Virus record (IMG/VR): IMGVR_UViG_3300031227_007858
From: a virus
DNA: 64,000 nt
Direction: 5' to 3' (one strand)
Numbering within the stretch: the first letter of the stretch is position 1; every line of letters begins with the position of its first letter. The notes beneath the pieces were generated by a model that was given only the letters and a program-made list of their open reading frames with translations, had not been told where the DNA came from and searched no databases. Below are positions 19,034-35,504 of the stretch, in pieces. The position numbers were made by a program, and so were the translations under genes.

Positions 19034-20106
19034 AAAAAGTAAGTTTTTTATTAACTAAAGAATTTTTATTGAAGGAATATATTTTAAACAAAAAATCTTT
19101 TAAGAAAATAGCTCAAGAATTAAATATTTCTTCATCAAGTATAAAAAGATATTTAATTTATCATGATATTAAAATAAGGAGTGTATCTGAATCTCTTAAA
19201 GGACATACTCCTTGGAATAAAAATAAAAAAATTGGAATAATTCCAAAATCTGCTTTTAAAAAAGGGAATATTCCTTGGAATAAAGATTTAACTAAAGAAA
19301 CAGATAAACGGGTATTTAAAAACGCCCAAAAAATTTCTAAAGCTCTTAAAGGGCAAACTTCTTCTCAAAAAGGTAGAATTTATGTTCCTAGAGAGATTCG
19401 CTATTGTGCTTGTGACTGTGGTCAGAATTTTGAATGTAGAATAACTGATACAAAGAGATATATAAAGAATCATCAACCAAGGAGAATGAATTTAAGGCCT
19501 CCTCAATATGCAATAGATAATTTAACAAAATATGTAAAAGAGAATATGAAAAATCATCCACTTTCAGAAGAACATAAGAAAAAAATAGGAGATAGTAATA
19601 GGGGTAAAAAACGTTCTGAAGCGGCAAGATTGAAAATGAGTAAATCAGCTAAAAATAAGAAAGTATCTGTGGAAACCAGAAATAAATTATCTTTGAGTTC
19701 TAAATTAATGTGGGCCAAAGAAGAAATAAGAAATAAAATTACAAAAGCTGTTTTAAAAGGATTAAAAATAAAACCTAATAAACCAGAAAAGCTATTAAAT
19801 AAATTATTACAACAAATATTACCAAAAGAATATAAATTTGTGGGAGATGGAAAAGTAATAATAAATGGTTTTAACCCTGATTTTGTGAATGTAAATGGTC
19901 AGAAAAAAATCATAGAGCTATATGGAGATTATTGGCATAACAGAAAAGAGGTTATAGAAAGAGATGGAAGACGATTAATTGCTTACAAAAAATATGGTTA
20001 TAAAACATTAATAATTTGGGAACATGAACTAAAGGATTTAGATAAAATTAAAAAAAGAATAATGGAGTTTAATAATGTCAAAAGTAATTTTAATAAAACC
20101 CAATGA
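19030..20106 (+). mobile_element. Freestanding homing endonuclease: NUMOD3-like repeats plus C-terminal Vsr-like nuclease
   Basis: G(N/H)IPWNK...K(A/G)LKG NUMOD3-like units. C-terminal KPNKPEKLLNKLL...NPDFVNVNGQKKIIELYGDYWH...YGYKTLIIWEHELKDL is near-identical to 4249 and 42193. Confidence 0.6.
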
Positions 20107-21313
20107 TATTTTACAATATCAAAATCTTAATCATTTAAAAGCCATTGAACCGCCCATGTGGTTAACGATTTTAGCAAATTATTTTAAATCGGAAAAAATT
20201 ATTGATATGTCTGCACTAAATTTATCTATTATAGAAACAATTGAACAAATAATACAATATAAACCAGATAAAGTAGTGTTATTGAGTACTGGAAACCATC
20301 CAAGTGCATACATACAGTCTAGGGCTCAAATAGAGCGTATAGGAGACATGTTACGAGCATTAAATATAGAAACTGATACTTTATACAGCTTACCAATTAA
20401 TCCTATGGATTATGAATCTCCTAGATGGGATTTATTAGATATGAGTAAATATAGGGCTCATAATTGGCACTGTTTTGGAGGGTTAAAAAGAAATAACTAT
20501 GGTGTTGTTTATAGTAGTGTAAGTTGTCCGATGAAATGTGAATTTTGCAACATTCATAATTTTTACATTACTCCTTATAAACAAAGAGATGTAAATGCAG
20601 TATTAAAAGATTTTCATGATTTATATAGTCAATATGGAATAACTAATTTTAAAATAATGGATGAGTTATTTGTAACTAAAGCTAAAAGAACTTACGAGAT
20701 ACTTGATGGACTTAAAGATATAGGTGATAAAATAAATATTTGGACTTATGCTCGTATAGATACTGTAGATGAGAAGTTATTAAAAGAGTTGAGAGCTGCT
20801 GGTATTAGATGGCTATCTTATGGTATTGAGACAGGTAATGATGAAATAAGAAAGAGTATAATGAAAGGACAGTTTACTAAAGATGACATTAAAGATATTG
20901 TGCAAATGACTAAAGATTGTGGAGTAAATATTATAGCTAATTATATGTTTGGATTTTGGGACGATAATTATAATACTATGAGAGAAACATTAGATTTTGC
21001 TAAAGATTTAAATTGTGAGTTTGCTAATTTTTATGCAACAGTAGCTTATCCTGGTAGCAAGTTTTTTGATGTAATGAAAGAGAGAGGAGTAGAGTTATCT
21101 GATGATTATAACGATTATGCTCAATTTAGTAAAAGTTTTAAACCATTACCAACAAAACACTTAACATCTCAAGAAGTATTGGAGTTTAGGGATAAAGCTT
21201 TTCAAGATTTTTTTACTTCTCCAAAATACTTGTCAATGATGAAACAAAAATTTGGTAATGGGGTTATTGATGAAATTAAACAAATGACAAAAATTAATAT
21301 AAAAAGAACATGA
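20075..21313 (+). CDS. Radical SAM enzyme with an N-terminal B12-binding-like domain (class B-like)
   Basis: CPMKCEFC (CxxxCxxC), preceded by about 150 aa with the Rossmann-like pattern of B12-binding radical SAM proteins. Confidence 0.65.
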   Translation: MSKVILIKPNDILQYQNLNHLKAIEPPMWLTILANYFKSEKIIDMSALNLSIIETIEQIIQYKPDKVVLLSTGNHPSAYIQSRAQIERIGDMLRALNIETDTLYSLPINPMDYESPRWDLLDMSKYRAHNWHCFGGLKRNNYGVVYSSVSCPMKCEFCNIHNFYITPYKQRDVNAVLKDFHDLYSQYGITNFKIMDELFVTKAKRTYEILDGLKDIGDKINIWTYARIDTVDEKLLKELRAAGIRWLSYGIETGNDEIRKSIMKGQFTKDDIKDIVQMTKDCGVNIIANYMFGFWDDNYNTMRETLDFAKDLNCEFANFYATVAYPGSKFFDVMKERGVELSDDYNDYAQFSKSFKPLPTKHLTSQEVLEFRDKAFQDFFTSPKYLSMMKQKFGNGVIDEIKQMTKINIKRT

Positions 21314-21840
21314 TAATATTAACACCAGAAATATTAATAAATGAAGGAATTAAAGAGACATTTAAGAGATTTGACGTTGCTATGATTTATTTAGTAATTG
21401 ATAGATATTTAAAAAATGAAGATAATCCATTTGAACTATATGGTAAATTACAGCATTTAAGAAACTCTAAAAATTTTGAAAAAAAATCAGAATGGGAATT
21501 AAATTTATCTCATGGAATTGATTGTATTAAACAGTATATTAAATTATTCAGTAGAGAAAAAAAATCTGTTAATTTAGTTAGAATGGATAGAATAGACACT
21601 GCTACTTTAACTAACCCCCCTATTCAAATATCCAGAAATCTGAGATTAGTAAATGGCTCTCATAGATTAGCAAATTTTTTATATTTTAAACATGGAGAAA
21701 TAGAAGCTAGAATGGATGGCAGTGAGGTACCTCCATCATTTGGATTTCAAATTAATTGGTTAGAAAAGTATTTTACTAAAGAAGAACAAGAACAAGTATT
21801 TAGTATAATAGAGAGAATAAAAAAAGATTATGGATTTTAA
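21310..21840 (+). CDS. Hypothetical protein
   Basis: No motif recognised. Confidence 0.35.
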   Translation: MIILTPEILINEGIKETFKRFDVAMIYLVIDRYLKNEDNPFELYGKLQHLRNSKNFEKKSEWELNLSHGIDCIKQYIKLFSREKKSVNLVRMDRIDTATLTNPPIQISRNLRLVNGSHRLANFLYFKHGEIEARMDGSEVPPSFGFQINWLEKYFTKEEQEQVFSIIERIKKDYGF

Positions 21841-22432
21841 AGAATATAGTAAATATAAGAGGTGTTTTGTTATAGGTAATGGTTCTAGTTTAAATGAAAT
21901 GAATTTAGATTTATTAAAAGATGAATTAACTATAGGATGTAATTTAATTTGTAAAAGTGGTTTTGTTCCAAAGTTTTTATGTGTATCTGATTCTGACAAT
22001 TTTAAAACGCAAGAAGAGTTTCTACCCTTTAATACTAATTTTGTGTTTGCTTCTCCACCATGTATAGTATCAGATGATATAAAATGTCGTAAAGTTGCAT
22101 TGAAACAGGAAGAATCTATGTTAGATGCTATAGAATTAGATAAAGATTTTAACAAAACATATTGGGCAAGAAATGTAATTATAGAGTTATGTATTCCATT
22201 AGCAAATTATCTTAATATCAAAGAAATATATTTAATTGGAATTGATGGGATTAAAAAAGATAACTATAGTCATTTTTATGATACTGTAATTTTACCAACT
22301 AATACTGATTTTGTACCTTATTATAATAAAATAAAAGAGTTGTATAATGGAACTATTTACGATTGTACTGTTGATGGTTATTTAACAATGTTTGAAAAAA
22401 GAGATTATTTAGAGGTACTAAATGGAAAATAA
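21830..22432 (+). CDS. Cst-II/Maf-like transferase (GT42 / DUF115-like), paralog 1
   Basis: N-terminal CFVIGNGSSL...LTIGCN resembles Cst-II MKKVIIAGNGPSL...FRCN. Later KEIYLIGIDGI resembles Cst-II KEIYLSGIDFY. Confidence 0.5.
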   Translation: MDFKEYSKYKRCFVIGNGSSLNEMNLDLLKDELTIGCNLICKSGFVPKFLCVSDSDNFKTQEEFLPFNTNFVFASPPCIVSDDIKCRKVALKQEESMLDAIELDKDFNKTYWARNVIIELCIPLANYLNIKEIYLIGIDGIKKDNYSHFYDTVILPTNTDFVPYYNKIKELYNGTIYDCTVDGYLTMFEKRDYLEVLNGK

Positions 22433-23081
22433 ACAATTAACATCTGGAATTATATATGATGTATTACACACTACTTTAAAGTATAACAAACCATTTGTTT
22501 TAGATAGAAAAATAAAACCAGCTTGGAGTTTTAATACTCATCTTTTTGGTCAAGTATTTACATGTAAGGGTAAGTTAGTGAGACATTCTCATTTTTTAGA
22601 CGATACAATTAGATTAAAAATGCTATCTAATATATCTGAAGATAATAGAGTAATGGTTTACGATACTGATAGATACTATGATGTAGCACATTTTGGTGAT
22701 ATAACTGCTGCTATAGCTCAAAAAAAGGGCTGTAAAGGAGCAGTAATAGATGGGTGCACTAGAGATATAGAAGGAATTGAAGAACTTAATTTTCCAATTT
22801 TTTGTAGAGATATTTTACCTATAGACTCTTTCGGTACTTGGCAAATAATAGATTATAATTGTGAGATAATCTTACCTGCTATAGATGGTAGAGTGGTAGT
22901 TAAACCTAATGATTGGATATTTGGGGATAGAGACTCAGTACTTATTATACCAGAGAAATTAGTAGATACAGTGCTTGTAGAATCTGAGAAGCAATTTGAG
23001 GCAGAAGAAAGACTTAAAACTAAAATATTAAATAATAACATAGATTTAATACAAGCATATGGAGAGGAGAATATACATTGA
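22422..23081 (+). CDS. RraA-like / MenG-family protein (4-hydroxy-2-oxoacid aldolase-type fold)
   Basis: FGDITAAIAQKKGCKGAVIDGCTRDIEGIEELNFPIFCRDILPI...IDGRVVVKPNDWIFGDRDSVLIIP matches the RraA-family GD..A..A...G..G.VIDG..RD..EI.E..FPVF core. Confidence 0.5.
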   Translation: MENKQLTSGIIYDVLHTTLKYNKPFVLDRKIKPAWSFNTHLFGQVFTCKGKLVRHSHFLDDTIRLKMLSNISEDNRVMVYDTDRYYDVAHFGDITAAIAQKKGCKGAVIDGCTRDIEGIEELNFPIFCRDILPIDSFGTWQIIDYNCEIILPAIDGRVVVKPNDWIFGDRDSVLIIPEKLVDTVLVESEKQFEAEERLKTKILNNNIDLIQAYGEENIH

Positions 23082-23728
23082 TTATCGCATTTATTCACGC
23101 AAAAGAACATAGTAATAGGTTAAGAAATAAAAATATAAAGATATTAGGAGATAAACCATTATTTTGTCATGCATTACTTAATGCTAAGAATGCTAACTTA
23201 GTTGATAGAGTAGTTGTTGATAGTGATTCTGATGAAATATTAAATATAGCTATTGAGCATGGAGTTGAAGCTTTTAAACGTCCTATTGCATTTGCAACTA
23301 ACAAGACTACAGGAGATGATTTAGCATATTATGAAGCTATTAGATATGAATCAGATATTATGTTACAGGTAGTACCAACAGCTCCATTTATTACATCTCA
23401 AACTATAGATGTAGCTATTGATTTGTTATTACAGTGTAAAGAGTTTAATACTGTAGTAGGAGTGAGAGCTGATAAGTTTTATATATGGGGAAATAATAAA
23501 CCAATTTATGGTGATAGCATTCCAAATAGCAACGAATTACCAGATACTATCTACGAAACTACTGGATTATATGTAAATAGAACAGAATCAGTTTTAAAAC
23601 TTAAAAAAAGAATAGATGTAGAGAACAGTTATTTATTGAAATTATCTAAAATAGAAGCAATTGATATTAATACTCAAGAAGATTTTTACTTTGCACAAAC
23701 AATATGGAACGGATTAAACAGAAAATAA
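23078..23728 (+). CDS. Sugar-acid cytidylyltransferase, NeuA/KdsB-like (CMP-nonulosonate synthetase family), divergent
   Basis: IIAFIHAKEHSNRLRNKNIKILGDKPLFCHALLNA...DRVVVDSDSDEI parallels IAIIPARGGSKG(I/L)P.KNI..L.GKPLI...I..A......D.V.VSTD. Confidence 0.5.
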   Translation: MIIAFIHAKEHSNRLRNKNIKILGDKPLFCHALLNAKNANLVDRVVVDSDSDEILNIAIEHGVEAFKRPIAFATNKTTGDDLAYYEAIRYESDIMLQVVPTAPFITSQTIDVAIDLLLQCKEFNTVVGVRADKFYIWGNNKPIYGDSIPNSNELPDTIYETTGLYVNRTESVLKLKKRIDVENSYLLKLSKIEAIDINTQEDFYFAQTIWNGLNRK

Positions 23729-24390
23729 ATAATAGAACAGTAGCGATACTTTCACATGGTAAATCTATAGAGAAATTAGAAGATAAAATTTATCAATTTA
23801 AAGATAAAGATATATGCTGGGTAAGTTTTAATTATTGGCAGTTATTTGATGAATTCATACTTTATAAAATTAATAAGAAACTGGACATAGTATTAGATTG
23901 TGCTAACTCAGAAACTTTAGAGTATGAAGAGTCAATTAGAATTCCTTTTATAAAAAAATTACTTGAGAGAGGAACTACTGTATTATCTGTACAAAAAGTA
24001 TTAAATAGCTGGAACGTTGTTAAGCAAAAATTATATCAAGATAGAATAGTATTATTAGACAATTTTTTTGATATTTCTACAGTAGTTAATACTTTGGTAT
24101 TACTAATATATGCTATAGCTCAATCTAATCCTAAAGAAATACTGCTTTTTGGGGTGGATGGTTATACTGAAGAAGATAATGGGTTATCTAGTTATTATAA
24201 ACCTGATTTTCAATTATTTAGAAGATTAGCTATTAGATTAAATAATAAAGATACTTTAAAAAGAGAAACAAATGCACTTAATGAAACATTTTACAGTAAT
24301 TATAGAGAGTTATTTAATAAAGAGTATACAGTTCCAACAATTAATTATTCAAAAAATAGTAAAATAACAATATTTAATAAGGAGAAATAA
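23704..24390 (+). CDS. Cst-II/Maf-like transferase (GT42 / DUF115-like), paralog 2
   Basis: VAILSHGKSIEKLE...DICWVSFNYW and TLVLLIYAIAQSNPKEILLFGVDGY. Paralogous to 31472 and 32232. Confidence 0.4.
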   Translation: MERIKQKINNRTVAILSHGKSIEKLEDKIYQFKDKDICWVSFNYWQLFDEFILYKINKKLDIVLDCANSETLEYEESIRIPFIKKLLERGTTVLSVQKVLNSWNVVKQKLYQDRIVLLDNFFDISTVVNTLVLLIYAIAQSNPKEILLFGVDGYTEEDNGLSSYYKPDFQLFRRLAIRLNNKDTLKRETNALNETFYSNYRELFNKEYTVPTINYSKNSKITIFNKEK

Positions 24391-24909
24391 ATGGGTTCAA
24401 TAAAAAAAATAGTTGGGAAAGTAGATTTGGGTGAACCAGACCATAATCCCCCAGAAGGAAAATGGAATTTACCATTTGCAGTAGAGTTACATGAAAATAT
24501 TCATATACATTGGCAAGATATTAGAATTGAAATGGATACGGAAGATTTTGAAGAGTTTGCATTATCTATTGCCAATGCTTATAAAAATTGGAAAGATGAT
24601 GGTAGTCCTAAAGGTTTATCAGCTACTAAATGGTATGGTCGTTGGGTAGGTGAAGAAGATATGCATTTTTATAAGGATAGATTAACTAAAATTAATGCAT
24701 TAGGTAAAACTTCACATTTGTTTAGAAAGTTTCCTAGAACTGAAAGTGGTAAAAAATATTATGATGGAGTATTTCAGATAGAGAAGCAGAATGGAGATGG
24801 AAGATATCATATTCATTATAAGAATTTTAGATGGGAGTTAGGAAAGAAACAATGTAAACAAGTAGCTGAAGAGTTTAGTAATGTAGTTAAAGAAGAGGAA
24901 GAATTATGA
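24391..24909 (+). CDS. Hypothetical protein
   Basis: No motif recognised. Confidence 0.35.
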   Translation: MGSIKKIVGKVDLGEPDHNPPEGKWNLPFAVELHENIHIHWQDIRIEMDTEDFEEFALSIANAYKNWKDDGSPKGLSATKWYGRWVGEEDMHFYKDRLTKINALGKTSHLFRKFPRTESGKKYYDGVFQIEKQNGDGRYHIHYKNFRWELGKKQCKQVAEEFSNVVKEEEEL

Positions 24910-25574
24910 TTGTAAGACCGAAACTTCCACAATCAATGTTAGATTATGTGGAAGTAAAAAGTGTACAGGATTTAGGTAAAGAGATATTATTTGAACAGTT
25001 TATAAAATATAATAACTTAGATAGTGGTACTGATAAAACAATGTTACAAGTAGGTGGTACTGGTAGAGACCCTGATGGAACAGTGAGAATAAATAAAAAA
25101 ACAAATTCTTCATATTTTTATCAAATGAAATATGTTAATTTAGATTTAGCAGATGATGGAAACCCTAGTACTATTATAGCTGATATTACTAATTGTCCTG
25201 AAGTAGAGAGTGAACAATTTGATTTTATTTTCTGCAATGATACTTTTGAACATATTGCAGAACCCTGGAAAGCAGCAAAAGAGATAAGTAGATTGCTAAA
25301 ACATAATGGTATTTGTTTTATTATAGCTCCTTTTGCATGGAGATACCATACTTCTCCTATTGATTATTGGAGATTTACTCCACAATGTTTAGTTTATCTA
25401 TTTAGAGATTTAGAGTTAGTAGAAGCTAATTGGGCTAATAGTCTCAATCTTAGAAGAGGGAATGCTGAAAAGGGAATACAGGGTAATGGTTCATGTAATG
25501 ATTTAGTTCCAGAAGATAGATTAGGTGGATGGAGAGAGAACTGGAGGGTATACTACTGTGGACGTAAAAAATAG
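24906..25574 (+). CDS. Class I SAM-dependent methyltransferase (Methyltransf_11/23-like)
   Basis: FDFIFCNDTFEHIAEPWKAAKEISRLLKHNGICFII matches the classic motif II/III region of small-molecule methyltransferases. Confidence 0.45.
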   Translation: MIVRPKLPQSMLDYVEVKSVQDLGKEILFEQFIKYNNLDSGTDKTMLQVGGTGRDPDGTVRINKKTNSSYFYQMKYVNLDLADDGNPSTIIADITNCPEVESEQFDFIFCNDTFEHIAEPWKAAKEISRLLKHNGICFIIAPFAWRYHTSPIDYWRFTPQCLVYLFRDLELVEANWANSLNLRRGNAEKGIQGNGSCNDLVPEDRLGGWRENWRVYYCGRKK

Positions 25575-26166
25575 AAAAGGAGAAATATTTGAGTTAAGAG
25601 AACAATTATCAAAATTTAATAATGAAGTTGATTATAGAGTTCAATATAAATATTGTTTTAATATTTCTCACAATCTATTTGAAATTGAACAACTTGCTAA
25701 TTACATAGGGAACAGAAAGTTTAATTACTTTTTAGAAATAGGTGGAGCTAATGGTGGTTCTTTATGGTTTTATTCTAATTTATTTTGTTCTTCTTCAGCT
25801 TTTATTAGATGTATAGAACCTAAAAGAGTAGAAGCATTACTTTTTATTAGAGATAAATTAGAAGAAACTGGTAAAAGTGTATCTATCGACCAAGCTTGGT
25901 CTTATACTAAAAATTTATGTGAAAGTATACCAGATAATACTATTGATTTATTACATATAGATGGTTCTCATTTGTATGAGGATGTTAAAATAGATTTTGA
26001 ACTATTCTATCCTAAAGTAAAGAAAGGTGGAATAATATTAATGCATGATGTTATATCTCACGAAGGTTCTAAGAAATTTATTGGTGGGATAGGTGATAAA
26101 TATAATATGATAAAGTTTGTAGATAAAGATTTTGGATTAGGGATTGGTTTAATTGAAAAACAGTGA
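25525..26166 (+). CDS. Class I SAM-dependent methyltransferase (Methyltransf_24-like), paralog
   Basis: EIGGANGGSLWFYS ... DLLHIDGSHLYEDV ... GGIILMHDV. Confidence 0.5.
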   Translation: MDGERTGGYTTVDVKNRKGEIFELREQLSKFNNEVDYRVQYKYCFNISHNLFEIEQLANYIGNRKFNYFLEIGGANGGSLWFYSNLFCSSSAFIRCIEPKRVEALLFIRDKLEETGKSVSIDQAWSYTKNLCESIPDNTIDLLHIDGSHLYEDVKIDFELFYPKVKKGGIILMHDVISHEGSKKFIGGIGDKYNMIKFVDKDFGLGIGLIEKQ

Positions 26167-26750
26167 GGATAAAAATGAATAAAAAAGATTTAATTAAATT
26201 TGAAAAAGAGATAGCAGATTTATTTGAAAATGGAGAAATTAAATTTCCTATTCATTTAGGTGGTGGTAATGAAGATAAATTAATAGAGATTTTTAAAGAA
26301 CATTATAAAGATGGAGATTGGATACTTGGTACATGGAGAAATCACTATCAGTGGTTATTATCTGGTAGAGATTCTGAAGAGTTAAAAAAGCAAATAATGA
26401 ATTATGGTAGCATGCATGTATATGATGATAGATTCTTTACTAGTGCTATTGTTGGTGGAATAGCTCCTATAGCTGTAGGTATAGCTCTAGCTTTACAAAA
26501 ACAGAAATCTAATAGCAAAGTACTATGTTTCTTAGGAGACATGGGAGCAAGCACTGGTATATCTAGAGAAAGCATCACTTATGCTGAAGGGCATGATTTA
26601 CCAGTATTATTTATTATAGAAGATAATGGTTTATCAGTTGCTACAGATACTAAAGAAGTATGGGGTACTAAAAATAAGTCTAAAACAATTAAATATGAAT
26701 ATGAGCGTTTTTATCCTCATTCAGGAATAGGCAAGTTCATTTTATTTTAA
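26163..26750 (+). CDS. Thiamine-diphosphate-binding subunit, E1-alpha / transketolase-N-like (short)
   Basis: CFLGDMGASTG...IIEDNGLS shows the GDG-(x~25)-N TPP-binding signature. At 195 aa it is a truncated or minimal version. Confidence 0.5.
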   Translation: MRIKMNKKDLIKFEKEIADLFENGEIKFPIHLGGGNEDKLIEIFKEHYKDGDWILGTWRNHYQWLLSGRDSEELKKQIMNYGSMHVYDDRFFTSAIVGGIAPIAVGIALALQKQKSNSKVLCFLGDMGASTGISRESITYAEGHDLPVLFIIEDNGLSVATDTKEVWGTKNKSKTIKYEYERFYPHSGIGKFILF

Positions 26751-26793
26751 AAACAAAGAGAGGAAGATAGTTAGCTAGAAAGGGAGGCAGTAA

Positions 26794-27066
26794 ATGATAG
26801 TAAAAATTAGCAAAGAAGAGGGTTGGGCATTTTATGATGGGTTTTCAAGTGTTGATTATGAGAGAGTAGATGAAGCAAAGTCTAAACAGTATCGATGTGA
26901 TGCAGAGTGGTTTACTGGTAAAAAGGGTTGTGGGATTTTAATGGTACTTTGTCATAAAGAATCTAGAGATGAACATTCAAAATTTGCACCTACATTTTCA
27001 ATAAAAACAGACAATATTACTTATCTATGTAATGATAAGGGTGAGACAATAGAAAGAATTAACTAA
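26794..27066 (+). CDS. Hypothetical protein
   Basis: Strong RBS GGAGG upstream. Confidence 0.4.
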   Translation: MIVKISKEEGWAFYDGFSSVDYERVDEAKSKQYRCDAEWFTGKKGCGILMVLCHKESRDEHSKFAPTFSIKTDNITYLCNDKGETIERIN

Positions 27067-27108
27067 ACAGAGAACAATCTTCCTCTCTGTATATAAAGGA
27101 GAAATAAT

Positions 27109-27363
27109 ATGTATAAAAAACCTGACAAATTAAAATACTTGATTTATACCATGGATGAATTTTTTAACCAGTCACATTCTAAAGATGAGATAAAACTAAA
27201 TGAAGAATATCTTAATGGAGTATATCGAACAAAGCAATATTTTTTTAGTATTGTGAAAATGCTATATTGTGATTTAGAGTTACATGAAAATTTAATTAAA
27301 GATATAGAGAGATATTTTAGTACAAAAAAGTATGAGCAAAATTATCAAGATATTTTTAAATAA
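27109..27363 (+). CDS. Hypothetical protein
   Basis: RBS AAGGAG upstream. Confidence 0.4.
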   Translation: MYKKPDKLKYLIYTMDEFFNQSHSKDEIKLNEEYLNGVYRTKQYFFSIVKMLYCDLELHENLIKDIERYFSTKKYEQNYQDIFK

Positions 27364-27377
27364 TAAGTGAACAAATT

Positions 27378-27593
27378 ATGAAAAATAAATATCCTAAATG
27401 TTATGGAAAGTTTAGCAAATGTCCTTTAGAGAAAAGAATATTTTGTGTTAAAGATACAATTAACGTTGCTGAAAAATGTAGACGAACAGAGCTTATTAAT
27501 AACGAAAAAATAAAGTACAAAATGTACACTGATTTAAATGGTAAAGTGTGGGTTTGTTCAAATGCTAAAGTAAAGAATGGAGAGAAAAAATAG
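27378..27593 (+). CDS. Hypothetical Cys-containing mini-protein
   Basis: ORF with three scattered Cys residues and a C-terminal CxxxxxxxxC pair. Confidence 0.3.
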   Translation: MKNKYPKCYGKFSKCPLEKRIFCVKDTINVAEKCRRTELINNEKIKYKMYTDLNGKVWVCSNAKVKNGEKK

Positions 27594-28116
27594 TATGAAT
27601 GTAAAAACAGCAAAATTAATATGGCTAACAGGATTACCGTGTTCAGGTAAAACTACACTAGGAGATGCTTTAGCATCAAAGTTAAAAGAGTTAAATGTTA
27701 ATGTTTGTAGATTAGATGGAGATATTGTGAGAAAGAATCTATGGACAGATTTAGGTTTTAGTAAAGAAGATAGAGCTGAAAATTTAAGAAGAATATGTGA
27801 ATTATCTAAATTGTTTGTAAAAAGTAATGTTACTGTTATAGCTACTTTTGTATCACCATATCAAAAAGTTAGAGATGATATACGAAAACAATTTAAAGAT
27901 AATTTTATTGAAGTATTTGTTAAAACATCTAAAGATGAATGTATTAAAAGAGATGTAAAAGGAATGTGGGCTAAAGCTATAAATGGAGAAATTAAAGAAT
28001 TTACAGGGTGGGATGACCCTTATGAAGAGCCTGTTAATCCAGAAATTATTATTGAAACAGAAATAGAGACTATTGATATTTCTATTACTAGACTCATTAA
28101 CAATCTAAAAATATGA
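27577..28116 (+). CDS. cysC: Adenylylsulfate (APS) kinase
   Basis: IWLTGLPCSGKTTLGDAL...CRLDGDIVRKNLWTDLGFSKEDRAENLRRICEL...FVSPY parallels the CysC signature (W.TGLSGSGKST.A..L..........LDGDN.R..L..DLGFS..DR.EN.RR..EV...F.....V.FISP). Confidence 0.75.
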   Translation: MERKNSMNVKTAKLIWLTGLPCSGKTTLGDALASKLKELNVNVCRLDGDIVRKNLWTDLGFSKEDRAENLRRICELSKLFVKSNVTVIATFVSPYQKVRDDIRKQFKDNFIEVFVKTSKDECIKRDVKGMWAKAINGEIKEFTGWDDPYEEPVNPEIIIETEIETIDISITRLINNLKI

Positions 28117-28766
28117 AATTAGGAATTATAGTGGGGAGTGGGTTAGAAGATTTAGAAAAATTAGATGGAATTAGTTTAGTAATATCTAGACATGGGCAGC
28201 AACATGATATAAGTCCTAGTAAAATTCCATATAAAAATCAAATGTTAGCTATGGCAAATGCAAATATTACTCATATATTATCAATGACTGCATGTGGCTC
28301 ATTAAGAGAGAATTTGTGTCCTGAGATGTTTATTTTGCCTGACCAAGTTATAGATAGAACATATAAAAGAAGTAATACAATACTTAATGATGTTGTTCAC
28401 ACTGCTATGGCTGACCCATTTAGTAAAGAGCTTGCTGATATTATAGAGAGCTCGTTAGTAAAATTAAAACTACCTTATGCTAGAAATAAAACATTGGTAA
28501 CAATAGAAGGACCAAGATTTTCTACTAGAGCAGAATCTAAGATGTATAGACAATTAGGATTTGATATTATTAATATGACTACAATGCCTGAAGCTATATT
28601 TGCTAAAGAGTTAGGAATACAGTATCAACCTATTGCTATGGTTACAGATTATGATTGTTGGAAGAAAGGAGAAGACGTTACATTTGAAAAAATAAAAAGT
28701 GTAATGAGTGACAACCGTGAAAATGCAATTGCATTATTAACTGATATAGTAAGGGGGTTAAAATGA
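28113..28766 (+). CDS. 5'-methylthioadenosine / purine nucleoside phosphorylase (PNP-MTAP family)
   Basis: MKLGIIVGSGLEDL start and IINMTTMPEAIFAKELGIQYQPIAMVTDYDCW match the MTAP/PNP N- and C-terminal signatures. Confidence 0.65.
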   Translation: MKLGIIVGSGLEDLEKLDGISLVISRHGQQHDISPSKIPYKNQMLAMANANITHILSMTACGSLRENLCPEMFILPDQVIDRTYKRSNTILNDVVHTAMADPFSKELADIIESSLVKLKLPYARNKTLVTIEGPRFSTRAESKMYRQLGFDIINMTTMPEAIFAKELGIQYQPIAMVTDYDCWKKGEDVTFEKIKSVMSDNRENAIALLTDIVRGLK

Positions 28767-29281
28767 AAGAGTATAAGAAAGCAATTCGCGAAGGAATGTT
28801 AAATTTAGCTAAATTACCTAATTCAATTTTTCTTGGACAGCAAGTTGGAGTTACTAATTTTTACTCTACATTAGATGGAATACCGAACAAGAAAAGACTA
28901 GAGTTACCAGTTGCTGAAGAATTACAGTTAGGAATGTCTATAGGATTAGCTATGCAAGGTTATTTACCTATTAGTATATATCAACGTATGGATTTTTTAC
29001 CTAGAGCCTGTGACCAATTAGTTAATCATTTAAATATAATGAAAGAAATGACGAGAGGGCAGTTTAATCCTAAAGTTATAGTTAGAGTTACTGTAGGAAG
29101 TACAAAACCTTTAAATACAGGATTGCAACATAGTAAAGATTTAACAGAAGAATTTAAAGCTTTATTAAAGAATATTAAAGTTGTTAAATTAGAGACAGCG
29201 AAACAAGCCAAACTTGTATATAGAGAAGCATTGACAGACAATGACTCACATTTAATAATTGAACTGCAGGATTTATATTAA
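28763..29281 (+). CDS. E1-beta / transketolase pyrimidine-binding-domain-like subunit (short)
   Basis: AIREGMLNLAKLPNSIFLGQQVGV...LPVAEELQLGMSIGLAMQGYLPISIYQRMDFLPRACDQLVNHLN...GQF parallels E1-beta domain I. The C-terminal domain is absent (172 aa). Confidence 0.5.
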   Translation: MKEYKKAIREGMLNLAKLPNSIFLGQQVGVTNFYSTLDGIPNKKRLELPVAEELQLGMSIGLAMQGYLPISIYQRMDFLPRACDQLVNHLNIMKEMTRGQFNPKVIVRVTVGSTKPLNTGLQHSKDLTEEFKALLKNIKVVKLETAKQAKLVYREALTDNDSHLIIELQDLY

Positions 29282-30072
29282 TGAAAGTAACAAGAACAGT
29301 AGATTACAATAAAGAACATATGTTTGCTTGTATGGGGTTTCCAAGGGGGGGTACTCATTATGTTCAAGAAGTTATGAAATATGCCAAATTTGATGTAGGA
29401 CATGCTAGAATAGAGTCAGAAGGAAATAGTGATTGGAGAATAATATTATCTTTAGATAAAAGAGTTAACCCTCATGATAATGGTTTAACTTTTGATTCTA
29501 ATACTCCTAATAAAATGTGTTTATATGCTGGCAAGTCGTTAGTTGAACACTTTAATCATGATAAATATATAGAAAAGTTAGCTTATACGAATAAGTATTA
29601 CAGAGAAACATTAAATAAAGTTATTAATATAAAATATAAATATAAACTATTTTTTGTTAGAAATCCATGGCATACTATTTCAACTTGGACTCAAATGTAT
29701 GAGTATCCTTATGGTGAAGGTGGATTACCTTCTTTAGTTTATTTTTCTAAAAGTGGAATAAATTTTGGAGAATTTAACAATGTTATTCATCGTAGTTGTA
29801 TAATGTTCGTAGAGTATGCTGAGTTAATGGAAAAATATGCTGATAAAGTTATTAGAATTGAGAATATATTTGAAGAGTTAAATCAATTTTTTATTGAAAA
29901 TGAATTAGAAAAACATATTATGAAACCAATAGAAATTAAAACATGGAAAGGAACTTTTCATGGACAAACTGATTTTCATAATCAACGCATATCAAAGTCT
30001 GAAATAGAAAAAAATGTTTCAGAAGAATTATTTAATAAAATATCAAAATTTATTGGAAGGATATATAAATGA
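29281..30072 (+). CDS. Putative PAPS-dependent sulfotransferase
   Basis: GFPRGGTHYV resembles the 5'-PSB PKSGTTW. LFFVRNPWHTISTW resembles the 3'-PB RDP.D..(V)S. The two motifs lie about 100 aa apart, as in sulfotransferases. Confidence 0.45.
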   Translation: MKVTRTVDYNKEHMFACMGFPRGGTHYVQEVMKYAKFDVGHARIESEGNSDWRIILSLDKRVNPHDNGLTFDSNTPNKMCLYAGKSLVEHFNHDKYIEKLAYTNKYYRETLNKVINIKYKYKLFFVRNPWHTISTWTQMYEYPYGEGGLPSLVYFSKSGINFGEFNNVIHRSCIMFVEYAELMEKYADKVIRIENIFEELNQFFIENELEKHIMKPIEIKTWKGTFHGQTDFHNQRISKSEIEKNVSEELFNKISKFIGRIYK

Positions 30073-31475
30073 AAACTCAACAATGTCAAGTAAGTATTAT
30101 TCTACCTACTTTAAGACCTGAAGTAGTTAAAAATTGTCTTGAAAGGATTTACCACACTACTAAAAATCTAGATTATGAAATTATATTGGTTACTCCTATT
30201 ATAGGCATTAAAGACAAGTTACGAGAGTGTAAAGCTTTTGATTATATAAAAGTGATAGAAGAACAAGAAAAAGCAGGAGTTAGTAGAGCTTTTGAACTAG
30301 CTATTCCACATATTAAAGGAGAGTATATATTTTTATTATCAGATGACCAGTTAATTCAAACTGACTGTATTCTCAATCTATATGAATACTCTAAAAATCA
30401 AGAGATTGATAGGGAAAATTTTATAGTTACAGGTCCTAGATATACATCTGTTTGGGGAAGTCATTGGGACGAAACTATTTTTGACCTTTATTACCCTTGT
30501 AATCCTTTTTTTCATAAAGAGATATTAAAATCTGTAGATAATGTTATATTTGATACTTATCTTACTAATTATTATGGAGATCCAGATTTTGCTCTAAGAG
30601 CTAGAGATAAGGGTTATCCTGTAATACCGTGCCCTACAGCATGGATGGAAAATACTAATGCTTTTGATGAAGTAGAAAAAGAAAGAAGAGATGATAATTT
30701 TAATAATGACCATGATAATTTTGTTAAAAGATGGGAAAGTAAGTTTGATGTTCCTGATAACTCATCTGCACAGATAAATAAAGGAAAATCAATTCAAGGT
30801 GGGGGTATATCATCTGAATTTTGTTCTAGAATTATGCATCATATTCAACATGAAGATTTTGAGTGTATTGTGGGGGAGATATCGTTGCGAGAAAATATAA
30901 ATGCTACAACACATTACTATTTAGAAGAACAATATGTTTCAGATGTTTTTGGATATATAGTATCAATGGGAAAACTTTTTCCAACATTTTTAAAAACACG
31001 AAATTATCCTCTACAAAGAAATCTGTTCAGATTGTTTTTATCTGAAATGAAAAATCCTGTTTTAGATTTTAAAACTGTTATAAATAAAGCTAAATGGATA
31101 GACTCTGAAATTGTTAGAAATTTGATTATGTCTGGATATATTATCTATTTAAAAAATAAAAAAGAAGGTAAAACTGATTTTATATTTATAAAAGACTATA
31201 AAGATACTAATATTGGATATAAAGATAAACATTTTTATGATACAGTACATAATCTTAAAACAACTACTTTTTGTGAGATGATAGGATTATTAGATGATAT
31301 CTCTTCAAAATTTCCAGTAATAGACTATTTAGAGTTAAAGCTATTTGAAACATATTTATCAAATAATCAAATATCTTTCCAATATATGTTTAATGCTTTA
31401 GAGTATTTTACTAATAAAAAGATTGATGAAAGAAGAAAGGGTAAGTTTGATGCTTATACATGGGATTTTAAATGA
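30069..31475 (+). CDS. Glycosyltransferase family 2-like with a C-terminal extension
   Basis: VSIILPTLRPE N-terminal motif and an LLSDDQL DxD motif. 468 aa. Confidence 0.5.
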   Translation: MKTQQCQVSIILPTLRPEVVKNCLERIYHTTKNLDYEIILVTPIIGIKDKLRECKAFDYIKVIEEQEKAGVSRAFELAIPHIKGEYIFLLSDDQLIQTDCILNLYEYSKNQEIDRENFIVTGPRYTSVWGSHWDETIFDLYYPCNPFFHKEILKSVDNVIFDTYLTNYYGDPDFALRARDKGYPVIPCPTAWMENTNAFDEVEKERRDDNFNNDHDNFVKRWESKFDVPDNSSAQINKGKSIQGGGISSEFCSRIMHHIQHEDFECIVGEISLRENINATTHYYLEEQYVSDVFGYIVSMGKLFPTFLKTRNYPLQRNLFRLFLSEMKNPVLDFKTVINKAKWIDSEIVRNLIMSGYIIYLKNKKEGKTDFIFIKDYKDTNIGYKDKHFYDTVHNLKTTTFCEMIGLLDDISSKFPVIDYLELKLFETYLSNNQISFQYMFNALEYFTNKKIDERRKGKFDAYTWDFK

Positions 31476-32239
31476 AAGTACCTATGTTAGATGATATAAT
31501 ACAAGGTAGAACAGTAGCTATTTGTGCTCACGGAGCATCTTTAAATAAGTTAGAAAATCAAATAGAAAAATTTAAAGATTATGATGTTTGTTGGACAAGT
31601 TTAAATCTTTATACTATAATAGAAGTGAATATTTTACATAAAATTAATAAAAAGTTAGATATAGTTTTAGATAGCTCCACTATTGCTAATCAGTTAATGA
31701 AAAGATTTGAAGCAGAGAGAAGAATTCCAAGATTAGAGCAATTTTTAGCTAGACCAGAGAAAAATTTATGGATAACAACTGAAGGATTATTAAGAGACCA
31801 GTTAAGACCTTTAGGATATGGAGATTTTTTAAGTAGACATCAACATAAAATTTTAGTTTTAGATAAAGTTTACCGCTCTATGCATGCTCCAAATTCGATA
31901 AGCTTATTGATATGTGCTGCTGCTATAGGTGGAGCTAAAAAAATAGTGTTATTTGGATATGATGGGTATTGGGGTAATTATCAAGAAAATATAAATTCTT
32001 TTTATAGACCTGAAGATATAGCTATAGAGAGGAAGTATGCGGTGGGTAATACTGTAGATTCTGATGTAGCAAAAGATACCACTAATTTTAATAGTTATTT
32101 TTGGAATATTTATTTAAAGTGGTGTTCAGCATATGATATTAAACCTGTTGAAGTAGTTAATTGTTCACCTGGCAGCAAATATACTATATTTCCTATTTTT
32201 AACTATAACAATATACATCAGGTATTGATAGATGCTTAA
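31472..32239 (+). CDS. Cst-II/Maf-like transferase (GT42 / DUF115-like), paralog 3
   Basis: TVAICAHGASLNKLE...DVCWTSLNLY and LLICAAAIGGAKKIVLFGYDGY. Confidence 0.4.
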   Translation: MKVPMLDDIIQGRTVAICAHGASLNKLENQIEKFKDYDVCWTSLNLYTIIEVNILHKINKKLDIVLDSSTIANQLMKRFEAERRIPRLEQFLARPEKNLWITTEGLLRDQLRPLGYGDFLSRHQHKILVLDKVYRSMHAPNSISLLICAAAIGGAKKIVLFGYDGYWGNYQENINSFYRPEDIAIERKYAVGNTVDSDVAKDTTNFNSYFWNIYLKWCSAYDIKPVEVVNCSPGSKYTIFPIFNYNNIHQVLIDA

Positions 32240-33014
32240 ATTAGAACAAATTAAACATAGAATTAATAAGAGGCCAATACTTATTTTATTACATGGTAAA
32301 TCTATTGCTGAGTTAGAAGATAATATAATACAGATGAAAGATTTGGATGTATGTTATTGTAGTATTAATTATTTTACATTATTGGAAGAACATATTTTAA
32401 ATCGTATAGATAGAAGATTAGATTTTGTATATGATAGTTCTTTTATTCCTGTTGAGTATAGACAAAACTTTGAGTGTAAGTATAGAATTCCTAGATTAAG
32501 AGGATTTTTAGATTCTTCTCCAGAAAAATTTTATGTTACTACTAAAGGTAGTTTGGAAAGAATGTGTTTAGATACTGGAAATGAAGAGTTTATTATTAAA
32601 TATGAAAATCAAATATTTTTAATAGATAATTTACCTTTTAATTTAAATGCTCCTAACTCGGCTATATTGCTTGTAGGACTGTGTATAGCATTTGAGATAT
32701 CTCTTATTGCTTTATTAGGTTTTGATGGATTTAAAGGTGTTGTACAAAATGATTTATTACACTCTTATTATAAATCTGAGTTGTATATTAAAAATCACAG
32801 ATATCCTAGTGTTGGAAATTTAGAACCATCGTTGTTATCTATTGAGACATTAAATATTGAAAGTAGAGGATTAGGTATAGTACAACAATATTGTAGAGAG
32901 TTAGGTGTTTTTATGCCAGAAATATATAATTGTTCACCTAGTACAATATATACAGGATTATTTGACATTATAAGTTATAAAACATTAATTAACAAATTAA
33001 AGGAGAAAAGATGA
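32232..33014 (+). CDS. Cst-II/Maf-like transferase (GT42 / DUF115-like), paralog 4
   Basis: ILILLHGKSIAELE...DVCYCSINYF and ILLVGLCIAFEISLIALLGFDGF. Confidence 0.4.
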   Translation: MLKLEQIKHRINKRPILILLHGKSIAELEDNIIQMKDLDVCYCSINYFTLLEEHILNRIDRRLDFVYDSSFIPVEYRQNFECKYRIPRLRGFLDSSPEKFYVTTKGSLERMCLDTGNEEFIIKYENQIFLIDNLPFNLNAPNSAILLVGLCIAFEISLIALLGFDGFKGVVQNDLLHSYYKSELYIKNHRYPSVGNLEPSLLSIETLNIESRGLGIVQQYCRELGVFMPEIYNCSPSTIYTGLFDIISYKTLINKLKEKR

Positions 33015-33865
33015 AAAAAGTAACAATTATAGCTGAAGTTGGTATCAACCATAATGGAGATATTAAAACAGCTAAAAGATTAATAGATGCTGCTAAATTT
33101 GCAGGTGCGAATTATGTAAAATTTCAAAAAAGAAATATTGATAGTGTATATACTCAAGAAGTTTTAAATGGACTTAGAGAGTCTCCTTGGGGCACTACTC
33201 AAAGAGAACAAAAAGCTGGATTGGAGTTTGGTAAAGAAGAGTATAGAATTATTGATGCATACTGTAAAGATAAAGATATACAGTGGTTTGCTAGCCCTTG
33301 GGATTTTATTAGTTTTAATTTTTTAGAAGAGTTTAAACCTCTAGTACAAAAGGTAGCATCTGCTTTATTAACTCATACTAAATTATTGACAGCCATGGCT
33401 GAGAGAAGAGTATTAACTTATATCTCTACAGGAATGTCTACTATGGTAGAAATAAATGCAGCTGTTACTATATTTGATAAATTGCAATGCCCTTTTATAG
33501 TATTACATTGTAATAGTAGCTATCCTATGGATAACAAAGATGCTAATCTATTAATGATTCCTAGATTGAAAGACTTATACAAAAATTTAACTTATTTTAA
33601 AGGGGTAGGATACTCTGGACATGAAGTAGGGTTGGACATAAGTATTGCAGCAGTAGCTTTAGGAGCAATAGTTATAGAAAGACATATTACTTTAGATAGA
33701 ACTATGTACGGTAGTGACCAAGCAGCTTCTGTAGAGCCTATGGGATTTTATAGACTAGTGAATTATATTAGGTCTATTGAAATTGCTTTAGGAGTACCTG
33801 AGAAGATAGTAACAGCTAAAGAGGAAGAATGTAAAAAGAAATTAAGACGGAGTTTGGACTTATGA
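33011..33865 (+). CDS. Nonulosonic acid (sialic / pseudaminic / legionaminic acid) synthase, NeuB family; lacks the C-terminal SAF domain
   Basis: MKKVTIIAEVGINHNGDIKTAKRLIDAAKFAGANYVKFQK is near-canonical for the NeuB/PseI/LegI N-terminus (IIAE.G.NHNGD...A..LI..A...GADAVKFQ). Confidence 0.75.
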   Translation: MKKVTIIAEVGINHNGDIKTAKRLIDAAKFAGANYVKFQKRNIDSVYTQEVLNGLRESPWGTTQREQKAGLEFGKEEYRIIDAYCKDKDIQWFASPWDFISFNFLEEFKPLVQKVASALLTHTKLLTAMAERRVLTYISTGMSTMVEINAAVTIFDKLQCPFIVLHCNSSYPMDNKDANLLMIPRLKDLYKNLTYFKGVGYSGHEVGLDISIAAVALGAIVIERHITLDRTMYGSDQAASVEPMGFYRLVNYIRSIEIALGVPEKIVTAKEEECKKKLRRSLDL

Positions 33866-34335
33866 GTAGTAGGGCAAATGCATTAATTCAATTAGCAAAG
33901 AAATGTAATTGTAATACTTATGCGGAGATAGGGTGCATGACAGGTAATACTGCAGTTAAATTACATAAGAAACATCCTCTCAGTGATGTTATTTTAGTAG
34001 ATATAATTAATAATAAATTGAGGAAAGATTTAGTGAGCAACTTACCATATAAATTTTATCATATACCATCTGTCGATGCTTCTGATAAGATTTTAGATAA
34101 CTCTATAGATTTATGTTTTATAGATGCTGACCATGGATATAAATATGTTTTAGCAGATATCAAAGCATGGTTACCTAAAGTAAAAGCAGATAAAATTATT
34201 TGTGGTCATGATTATAGTAAAACTCAACATCCTGGAGTTGTTAAAGCAGTACACGAAAGTTTTAAAGATGAAGAGATTAATTTAATTCCAGATTTAGATT
34301 ATAATGATGTTTATGTTTGGTGGGTACGAGTATAA
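33862..34335 (+). CDS. Class I SAM-dependent methyltransferase (Methyltransf_24-like), paralog
   Basis: YAEIGCMTGNTAV ... DLCFIDADHGYKYV ... KIICGHDY. Confidence 0.5.
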   Translation: MSSRANALIQLAKKCNCNTYAEIGCMTGNTAVKLHKKHPLSDVILVDIINNKLRKDLVSNLPYKFYHIPSVDASDKILDNSIDLCFIDADHGYKYVLADIKAWLPKVKADKIICGHDYSKTQHPGVVKAVHESFKDEEINLIPDLDYNDVYVWWVRV

Positions 34336-35504
34336 TCTAATGTTTCTTTTGTAGCATTAATCATATAATTAAAATCCTTAGCGGGCATCCACTCGTGGAA
34401 AGGAAATGACATCATATTATCAAAGAAGAGGTCTGTGTTGGGGCAATTAGCTTCACCATAACCTCTTTTTTTGAATAGTTCGTATCTATTTAAAGGATAA
34501 TATTGTACATTCATTTCTATTCCATATGTCTCTATTAACCTAGAGATTATATTATCTCTATTTCGCATACATTTTACAGGCATTAAATGATATGAAGATG
34601 AAATATTAAATGGTATTTTTTGAAATACTATGTCAGGATAGTTACTTAATGCTTCTTTAAAACTCCAAAACATAGATTCTCTATTAGAGTTTAATTCATC
34701 TATTCTATCAAGTAATAATATACCAACAAGTGCTTGTATTTCTGACATATTATATTTATAGGGTAAATCATTAGATACATCTGTAACATTAGTCATCGCT
34801 GGTTTCCAATATTTATCTTGATTTTCAAATGGTTTATTACCAAACATTCTCAATGGAGCTACTTTTTTAGCTAGTTCTTCATCTCTAACATATAAAGCAC
34901 CACCTTCACCTAAAGTAGTTAAATTCTTTTGAGCATGAAAACTAAATACTCCAAAATCACATAATACTCCAGCTTTTTTATTATTGTATTTAGCACCAAA
35001 TGATTGAGCTGCATCTTCTACTAATGGAATATCAAATTCTCTAAACTTATCTATATCACAAGGTATTCCATATAAATGTACTAATATAATAGCTTTTGTT
35101 TTATTAGTAATTTTCTTTTTTACATCTTCATACGACATTACCAAAGTATCAGGATCAATATCTGCCCAAACTAATTTAGCTCCCCTTCTAAGAAATGGTA
35201 TAGCTGTAGCACAAAATGTATGTGATGGTAATATTATTTCATCTCCTTCTTTAATTTCTAATAACTCAGCAGTTAGCTCTAAAGCAGATGTTCCACTATT
35301 AACAGCAAATATATCCCCTTGTTCAACATCTAAATAATCTTTTAATTTAGTTTCAAATGCATCTTTATATGCTCCTTGAGTTAGTGCTTCAGTACTTCTA
35401 AGAAAAGCATTAATAGTTTTTATTTCTTGTTCATTTAATAACACACTTCTAATTGACCAAGGTATTTTAAAGTTCATTTTTTCTCCTGTATTTTTAATAT
35501 CCAT
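34311..35504 (-). CDS. DegT/DnrJ/EryC1/StrS-family PLP-dependent sugar aminotransferase
   Basis: FAVNSGTSALELT, ILPSHTFCATA, VEDAAQSFGA and FSFHAQKNLTTLGEGG (Schiff-base Lys in SFHxxK). Confidence 0.8.
   Translation of the reverse strand: MDIKNTGEKMNFKIPWSIRSVLLNEQEIKTINAFLRSTEALTQGAYKDAFETKLKDYLDVEQGDIFAVNSGTSALELTAELLEIKEGDEIILPSHTFCATAIPFLRRGAKLVWADIDPDTLVMSYEDVKKKITNKTKAIILVHLYGIPCDIDKFREFDIPLVEDAAQSFGAKYNNKKAGVLCDFGVFSFHAQKNLTTLGEGGALYVRDEELAKKVAPLRMFGNKPFENQDKYWKPAMTNVTDVSNDLPYKYNMSEIQALVGILLLDRIDELNSNRESMFWSFKEALSNYPDIVFQKIPFNISSSYHLMPVKCMRNRDNIISRLIETYGIEMNVQYYPLNRYELFKKRGYGEANCPNTDLFFDNMMSFPFHEWMPAKDFNYMINATKETLDYTRTHQT

Follow-up and report, generated by a model that had tools for sequence, protein, structure and literature searches.

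Known sulfate donor systems and the present locus

Dedicated supply of 3'-phosphoadenosine 5'-phosphosulfate (PAPS) together with a sulfotransferase for one product has been described for NodPQ and NodH of Sinorhizobium meliloti and for RaxPQ and RaxST of Xanthomonas oryzae (PMC4216712). In these systems a lipo-chito-oligosaccharide or a peptide is sulfated, with no feed to cysteine synthesis (PMC4216712). Genes for adenosine 5'-phosphosulfate (APS) kinase are also known from large phages and giant viruses (PMC13172472, PMC12713726). Here, we analyzed a stretch of viral DNA of 64,000 nucleotides (IMG/VR record IMGVR_UViG_3300031227_007858; in the following, the window), which encodes a CysC-type APS kinase in a cluster for nonulosonic acids (NulO) and other glycans. 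As the initial annotation had stated, the kinase gene lies two genes upstream of a gene for a sulfotransferase-like protein; between them are genes for an MTAP-like phosphorylase and for one half (beta) of a split thiamine pyrophosphate (TPP) enzyme. The features at the center of this analysis are:

27577..28116, + strand: APS (adenylyl-sulfate) kinase, CysC type, 179 amino acids (aa), matching PF01583 and TIGR00455
29281..30072, + strand: divergent sulfotransferase-superfamily protein, 263 aa, with the 5'-phosphosulfate-binding (5'-PSB) motif FPRGGTH at residues 20-26 and the 3'-phosphate-binding (3'-PB) motif RNPWHTIS at residues 127-134
63396..64000, - strand: canonical sulfotransferase, C-terminal 200 codons, cut by the window end (Sulfotransfer_3, E = 3.4e-14, 54.1 bits against a cut-off of 27)

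We read the kinase and the sulfotransferases as a dedicated virus-encoded sulfation module in or beside the NulO/glycan cluster, with 'cysC' serving as donor supply, and put the probability of this reading at about two in three. So read, the module is a new variant of the NodPQ/NodH-type systems. Like NodPQ/NodH and RaxPQ/RaxST, it combines an extra APS kinase with a sulfotransferase. Unlike these systems, it is found in a phage-like genome and a NulO cluster, with three sulfotransferase-fold genes, one of them from a family without a Pfam model. In addition, the NodP/NodQ and RaxP systems include a canonical ATP sulfurylase, whereas none was found among the window's open reading frames (ORFs) of at least 100 aa, the scope of all enzyme-family negatives in the window reported below.

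Based on homology and genomic context, the following steps are proposed. The 27577 product would phosphorylate the 3'-hydroxyl of APS to give PAPS, as its very strong homology suggests. The 29281 product would bind PAPS via the 5'-PSB and 3'-PB motifs and transfer the sulfate to a hydroxyl or amine, which is suggested by its fold, its motifs and the association of the genes; the same PAPS-dependent transfer would be performed by the two canonical sulfotransferases located at the window end and past it. The acceptor would be a product of the neighbouring sugar genes; candidates are an intermediate of the nucleotide-sugar type, a glycan with NulO and a protein that carries a glycan. APS would be supplied either by the host or by a small nucleotidyltransferase that the phage encodes outside the window. 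The locus would then be a concrete case of a viral cysC supplying PAPS to virus-encoded sulfotransferases in a NulO/glycan cluster, and donor supply of this kind would entail that virions or the surface of infected cells carry sulfated glycans.

The initial annotation had suggested PAPS production and use inside a sugar-modification cluster, consistent with sulfated NulO or glycan products. Production and use are backed by the kinase, the sulfotransferase fold, the two further sulfotransferases and the pairing in related loci. A sulfated NulO is no more than a plausible product, with a sugar acceptor being indicated by the genomic setting in glycan clusters only.

A canonical APS kinase within a glycan operon

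Judged by its sequence, the 27577 product is a canonical CysC-type APS kinase, and the coordinates and strand initially assigned to it are right. It matches PF01583 (APS_kinase) with E = 3e-55 and 186.9 bits (cut-off 21.1) over profile positions 3-151 of 152, and TIGR00455 (apsK) with 204.8 bits against a curated cut-off of 138.7. The best solved relative is the Synechocystis APS kinase 5cb6 (E = 3.8e-43); the stretches GLPCSGKTT, LDGDIVR, DLGFSKEDRAENLRR, FVSPY and RDVKGMWAKAINGEIKEFTGWDDPYE correspond position by position to those of 5cb6 and 2gks. The hallmarks kept comprise the P-loop, LDGDxVR, LGFSxEDRxxNxRR, SPY and the KGxxxxAxxGxIxxFTGxDDPYE lid. In APS kinase structures, these stretches include the Arg/Phe/Arg/Asn substrate-binding stretch and the lid helix with FTG.

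The window protein is 57-60% identical to cellular proteins that their sources call adenylyl-sulfate kinase. The database protein P0089, encoded on a 71-kb contig, is identical to it and annotated from Met7 (27595), which abuts the stop of the upstream ORF and is likely the true start. The syntenic contigs L011-L014 carry an orthologue with 85% identity in this position, and 10 of the 50,697 records of the deposited phage collection contain an APS kinase match. A second APS kinase considered at 16991..17521 was rejected, as this Zeta-toxin-like P-loop protein showed generic P-loop matches only.

Viral cysC genes are routinely catalogued as auxiliary metabolic genes (AMGs) of assimilatory sulfate reduction, an assignment that is not validated (PMC12713726, PMC13172472), and from its sequence the 27577 kinase cannot be told apart from cellular CysC. 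It could hence be an ordinary AMG that boosts the host route from APS via PAPS and sulfite to cysteine, with an incidental sulfotransferase-like neighbour. We regard this as very unlikely. Among the window ORFs, no strong family match to PAPS reductase, sulfite reductase or ATP sulfurylase was obtained, so that an assimilatory role would leave the kinase without partners in the window. Moreover, the kinase lies inside a tightly packed glycan operon where its orthologues hold the same position, the genome combines it with three sulfotransferase-superfamily genes, and in contigs L002 and L003 an APS-kinase gene directly adjoins the orthologous sulfotransferase-like gene. While the enzyme family is the same as that of other viral 'cysC' AMGs, usually read as assimilatory, the context here points to donor supply for sulfotransferases.

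A divergent sulfotransferase-fold protein

The 5'-PSB and 3'-PB motifs attributed to the 29281 product in the initial annotation were recovered at residues 20-26 and 127-134. FPRGGTH (nt 29338..29358) and FVRNPWHTISTW (residues 125-136, nt 29653..29688) are invariant in the three closest relatives (43-49% identity), which are the only close homologues among 5.8 billion proteins. A profile search with this family yielded 87 remote relatives among 1.84 billion representatives. Across 62 family members R22, G24 and T25 are conserved to at least 90%, and little or no variation occurs at R127 and P129. When 84 family sequences were compared with Pfam, Sulfotransfer_3 was found in 24/84 and Sulfotransfer_1 in 5/84, which makes the link of the family to sulfotransferases a transitive one.

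Searching the PDB with the 62-sequence profile gave sulfotransferases for all ten best matches, headed by SULT7A1 (5x2b, E = 1.5e-4). In this alignment PRsGTgY falls on PKSGTHW of the 5'-PSB loop and vvRnPlkaisS on IVRNPKDTAVS of the 3'-PB motif. A profile of only three sequences found nothing in the PDB, and its AF2 model was unusable, with a predicted local distance difference test (pLDDT) score of 50. With the 62-sequence alignment, AlphaFold gave a confident model of the 29281 product (pLDDT 86.8, predicted template modelling score (pTM) 0.86). Its best structural matches are TPST1, the sulfotransferase domain of an olefin synthase and TPST2, over 160-170 residues. P-loop kinases reach a similar Z over about 105-115 aligned residues, which is expected because sulfotransferases share that P-loop kinase core. 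In Foldseek the E-values are weak (about 1e-2), and the top list consists almost entirely of sulfotransferases. No Walker A motif GxxxxGK[ST] occurs in the protein. The model is that of a sulfotransferase fold rather than of a generic P-loop kinase, and the non-sulfotransferase P-loop fold that the initial annotation had named as evidence against a sulfotransferase was not found.

These results support placing the 29281 product within the sulfotransferase fold, as a divergent member that keeps both PAPS-binding motifs. Its family is a sulfotransferase-fold family not covered by any Pfam model, and the 29281 protein thereby defines a group that is missed by the present hidden Markov model (HMM) libraries. 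In comparison with TPST1/2 and the bacterial or polyketide synthase Sulfotransfer_3 types, the protein is much smaller, with 11-12% identity and no direct HMM match. It also differs from TPST1/2 by an Ala at the Glu position, and its acceptor is, from context, probably a sugar and not a protein tyrosine.

Several observations weigh against the sulfation module. The search of the 29281 protein against Pfam and NCBIfam, including Sulfotransfer_1 to Sulfotransfer_5, gave no match even at E up to 10, and the initially suggested check with the Sulfotransfer_1/3 HMMs was accordingly negative. When the family was aligned by hhalign with the canonical sulfotransferases of the same genome, only a 24-column PSB region was aligned (91% probability). 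H41 and E42 of the family G-H-E consensus are conserved to at least 90%, whereas the window protein reads H41-A42 and the closest relatives vary at this site (HE, AE, TH and HE). At the level of the genome, no recognised structural hallmark gene was found in the window, and megablast of the cluster against the 50,697 deposited phage records returned no match.

The His-Glu dyad, which is located about 20 residues past the PSB loop, is likely the catalytic base of the family, and cytosolic sulfotransferases use a His base. With Ala in place of Glu, no direct match to a curated HMM and weak Foldseek E-values, the 29281 product might bind PAP(S) but be degenerate or lack catalysis, or its P-loop fold might serve some other enzymatic activity. 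We give this explanation little credence. H41 is retained, and the Walker A lysine is absent. Sulfotransferases align with the model over a longer stretch than kinases do, and both PAPS-binding motifs are strictly kept in relatives of no more than 43-49% identity, which argues for purifying selection on the cofactor site. Regarding the claim that 29281 encodes a sulfotransferase, fold and both motifs are thus backed by the family profile and the model, but direct HMM support is missing and the Glu of the dyad is replaced. With this replacement, its catalytic competence is presumptive.

Further sulfotransferases and pairing with the kinase in related loci

The canonical sulfotransferase cut by the window end is available at full length. 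Contig L015, which equals window positions 59778..64000 at 100% identity and runs 3 kb further, carries the complete form P0209 (285 aa; Sulfotransfer_3, 8.9e-23; Sulfotransfer_1, 2.6e-14). Adjoining P0209, the extension encodes a second canonical sulfotransferase of 258 aa (Sulfotransfer_3, 5e-20). The genome therefore encodes at least three sulfotransferase-superfamily genes. No match was obtained by tblastn against the 50,697 phage records, neither for the 63396..64000 fragment nor for the 29281 product.

The association of kinase and sulfotransferase-like protein recurs in relatives. In L002 and L003, a short gene of the APS kinase family (127 aa, lid-less; PF01583, 6.4e-26) overlaps the start of the 29281 orthologue. 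L001 has the same NulO cluster and gene set with the orthologue placed elsewhere in it, and this contig ends in an APS-kinase N-terminus at a position matching that of the window kinase. Every relative of the 29281 gene with readable flanks, namely L001, L002 and L003, has an APS-kinase gene nearby; a metagenome scan for further relatives added only one, a duplicate of L002. Searches for related loci in IMG/VR, using the sulfotransferase-like family and the nucleotidyltransferase pair, gave no confirmed relatives or no usable pattern.

More remote family members are found in comparable surroundings. In L009, one is part of a glycan cluster with four GT2 genes, GT11, NeuB, MptE-like and CTP_transf_3 genes, and in L004 one lies next to an epimerase. 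Altogether, the data support that the pairing is not coincidental, since relatives keep it, the genome has further sulfotransferases and remote members sit in glycan clusters.

Besides that, a remote family member with 25% identity (P0007) was found on L005, a very large, virus-like contig of 302 kb, 2 kb from another weak Sulfotransfer_1 gene (6860..7768 and 10001..10792). This contig also encodes HSP70, HSP20, FKBP and a cold-shock protein.

A small nucleotidyltransferase as candidate source of APS

It had been noted initially that no ATP sulfurylase is visible, and this holds for the window ORFs: neither Sat (PF01747) nor CysD (PF01507) with CysN was found. One family scan behind the window negatives comprises the best 25 of 41 families, the remainder being single weak matches. 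The further claim that APS has to come from the host stands within the window, but a candidate nucleotidyltransferase is located about 2-3 kb past its end. At this position, upstream of the two sulfotransferases, the L015 extension encodes the nucleotidyltransferase, a DUF2061-like membrane ORF and a HAD-like phosphatase. The nucleotidyltransferase (118 aa; L015 858..1214) has a HIGH motif and a passing match to CTP_transf_like (1e-8), and its match to PF01747 reaches 14.6 bits, under the cut-off of 24.3. It represents a family of about 115 aa with the motifs GR(W/Y)QP(L/P)HxGH and ISATxIR.

This family is repeatedly associated with kinases and sulfotransferases. A 63%-identical, HAD-fused nucleotidyltransferase precedes the DUF2061 ORF, the mini APS kinase and the sulfotransferase-like gene in L002. 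In L017-L020 the nucleotidyltransferase lies directly upstream of APS kinases, with Pfam sulfotransferases nearby, and these kinases are extended at the N-terminus by a membrane segment similar to the DUF2061-like ORF of L015. While a search with the strict DNA pattern GRYQPPHxGHF found nothing, a motif scan of IMG/VR gave 120 loci, 108 of which contain the nucleotidyltransferase family. An APS-kinase-family ORF is located within 1 kb of the nucleotidyltransferase, or fused to it, in 97/108 viral loci, and many of these viral partners are short, divergent 'mini' kinases. Among 148 same-strand neighbours from 28 loci, the most frequent Pfam families were Sulfotransfer_1 (10 ORFs) and Sulfotransfer_3 (9), followed by glycosyltransferases, 2-oxoglutarate (2OG) oxygenases and DUF2061, with one inorganic pyrophosphatase. 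By iterative search, a sulfotransferase-superfamily ORF was detected in at least 46 of the 108 viral loci, usually one gene-length from the nucleotidyltransferase. Sulfotransferase, kinase and nucleotidyltransferase in a row is a common viral order.

In animals, a bifunctional PAPS synthase consists of an APS kinase domain followed by an ATP sulfurylase domain. Similarly, the kinase-family domain is N-terminal in the fusions with the nucleotidyltransferase (14 viral fusions and 30 cellular loci). Unlike in the animal enzyme, the C-terminal partner is a NadM-like domain of about 115 aa. By sequence, NMN adenylyltransferases of the NadM type come closest to it (PDB 1f9a, E = 1.6e-13, among the 60 PDB matches listed), and no ATP sulfurylase appears among these best 60 of the 74 PDB matches with E up to 10, the 60 extending to about E = 1. 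In cellular genomes the pair of kinase and nucleotidyltransferase occurs in 83/102 loci, mostly in Pelagibacteraceae. A survey of SAR11 genomes reported cysC and cysQ as present, with no sat and mostly no cysD/cysN (PMC5069961).

From the gene association, we hypothesize that the nucleotidyltransferase acts as a sulfate adenylyltransferase; it could equally make another ADP-X that is 3'-phosphorylated by the kinase. The phage may thus bring its own non-canonical step of sulfate activation. That it encodes a complete, self-contained sulfation system, with the candidate NMNAT-like nucleotidyltransferase as a previously unrecognised enzyme for the ATP-sulfurylase step, is a tentative proposal that we consider doubtful. 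If it were true, many viral and SAR11 'cysC' genes would belong to PAPS-synthase-like pairs for the sulfation of surface glycans, here of a modified NulO, and not to assimilation. In any case, the cassette of kinase and small nucleotidyltransferase, with or without a sulfotransferase, is conserved in viruses, and the kinase-nucleotidyltransferase pair is found in SAR11. Activation of sulfate by this nucleotidyltransferase would represent a new route to APS and PAPS and could explain the orphan cysC of SAR11.

A different 3'-phosphorylated donor is conceivable as well, in which case the kinase and the sulfotransferase-fold proteins would transfer a group other than sulfate. CysC homologues with non-APS substrates are known: in the capsule pathway of Campylobacter jejuni for O-methyl phosphoramidate (MeOPN), Cj1415-Cj1418 make CDP-phosphoramidate 3'-phosphate, with the CysC homologue Cj1415 (cytidine diphosphoramidate kinase) providing the 3'-phosphorylated nucleotide donor (PMC11800397). 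Its partners are a glutamine kinase (Cj1418-like), a CTP:phosphoglutamine cytidylyltransferase and a gamma-glutamyl-CDP-amidate hydrolase (PMC11800397). Like Cj1415, the window kinase is a CysC-family enzyme encoded within a glycan-modification cluster; the cluster contains several methyltransferases, the accompanying nucleotidyltransferase could make some other ADP-X or CDP-X, and the frequency of 'mini' kinases among its viral partners would fit as well. However, no counterparts of Cj1416-Cj1418 are present in the window, where no ORF within the stated scope matched phosphoenolpyruvate (PEP)-utilising/glutamine-kinase-like, glutamine amidotransferase-type or amidohydrolase families, and two neighbours are bona fide Pfam sulfotransferases. 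The window kinase is of full length, keeps the Arg/Phe/Arg/Asn positions of 5cb6 at the high identity to cellular adenylyl-sulfate kinases given above, and is much closer to true APS kinases, Cj1415 being set apart here by its description and not by sequence. Another donor is therefore improbable, and PAPS supply by the kinase is the preferred reading.

Operon structure and neighbouring genes

On the + strand, the region of about 20.0-34.3 kb forms a single, tightly packed operon with many stop/start overlaps. It contains a radical S-adenosylmethionine (SAM) enzyme, MptE/Maf-like paralogues, an RraA-like aldolase, a CMP-NulO synthetase, methyltransferases, GT2 and NeuB. Its main features besides the kinase and the sulfotransferase-like gene are:

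20075..34335, + strand: sugar-modification operon (Pfam and NCBIfam matches)
23078..23728, + strand: CMP-NulO synthetase
26163..26750, + strand: TPP-enzyme alpha half
28113..28766, + strand: MTAP-like nucleoside phosphorylase (PF01048, E = 9.6e-35; TIGR01694 MTAP, 224.8 bits, under the 274.85 cut-off)
28763..29281, + strand: TPP-enzyme beta (pyrimidine-binding) half, E1/transketolase-like (PF02779, E = 3.7e-9; PF00676, E = 1.6e-15)
30069..31475, + strand: GT2
33011..33865, + strand: NeuB
34311..35504, - strand: DegT aminotransferase, convergent to the operon
5802..6853 (+), 28113..28766 (+) and 59849..61897 (-): SAM/polyamine gene set

The two genes between the kinase and the 29281 gene differ in their likely roles. 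The MTAP-like phosphorylase was considered as a member of the sulfation chemistry and rejected, with the SAM/polyamine gene set of the genome providing a better fit; it probably serves the salvage of SAM by-products rather than sulfation. This set comprises MetK, an AdoMet-decarboxylase-like ORF (weak match), a spermidine synthase and the MTAP-like protein, in addition to radical-SAM enzymes and methyltransferases. The TPP-enzyme halves are split in the window by about 2 kb, with three small ORFs, the APS kinase and MTAP between them. In L002 they adjoin, and the kinase-MTAP block therefore looks inserted between the halves in the window lineage.

Overall, the sugar genes include NeuB, two CMP-NulO synthetases, DegT, several MptE/Maf-like paralogues, GT2 genes, a weak GT29-like match, methyltransferases and radical SAM enzymes. 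They are not restricted to the + strand operon, as glycan genes are also present on the opposite (-) arm (40325..41020, 44710..45327, 53294..53926 and 54985..55665). The latter set consists of the second CMP-NulO synthetase (CTP_transf_3, 1.3e-24), the weak GT29 sialyltransferase-like match, a nucleotide-diphospho-sugar transferase and an RmlD-like reductase. Among deposited phages, NulO synthases of the NeuB type are found very seldom: only 3/50,697 records match 33011..33865, one from an uncultured phage of 484 kb, one from a marine single-cell virus and one with the label Moritella viscosa.

Four paralogues of about 200-260 aa with a common N-terminal sequence are encoded on the + strand (21830..22432, 23704..24390, 31472..32239 and 32232..33014). 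The match to MptE-like (PF01973) is real but sub-threshold for 21830 (3.5e-6) and marginal for 31472 (E = 0.11), and 23704 and 32232 gave none. If they are of the Maf type, these proteins are candidates for the transfer of NulO onto proteins.

Genome setting and minor observations

The window probably belongs to a large phage-like genome that is rich in AT. Phage identity is probable and unproven, its basis being five YopX copies, homing endonucleases, a Clp protease, PHROG matches and the two-arm strand organisation. The 1095-aa ORF and the B12 radical-SAM ORF gave no tblastn match in the 50,697 phage records, and no record was returned in the database look-up for the window protein 62340..62795.

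MetK (59849..61897, - strand) contains an insertion of about 325 aa exactly within the conserved GGGAF|SGKDPTKVDRS loop. The insert starts with Cys (CLDSETEYL...), ends with ...VFVTGN followed by Ser, and reads like an intein. In tblastn against phage MetK genes only the flanks were covered (52% of the query, in 2 pieces), and the insert matches a PHROG labelled PhoH-like.

Two paralogous homing-endonuclease-like genes (19030..20106, + strand; 42193..42909, - strand) combine NUMOD3 with a DUF559/Vsr-like C-terminus, and their C-terminal halves are nearly identical. The first is located between a methyltransferase and a radical-SAM gene; it is missing from the syntenic L001, where those two genes abut, and therefore looks like a recent mobile insertion. 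Finally, ARAGORN predicted a tRNA-Trp (CCA) at 38207..38285 (- strand), which shares about 30 nt with the 3' end of the ORF for the B12-binding radical-SAM protein (38253..39644).

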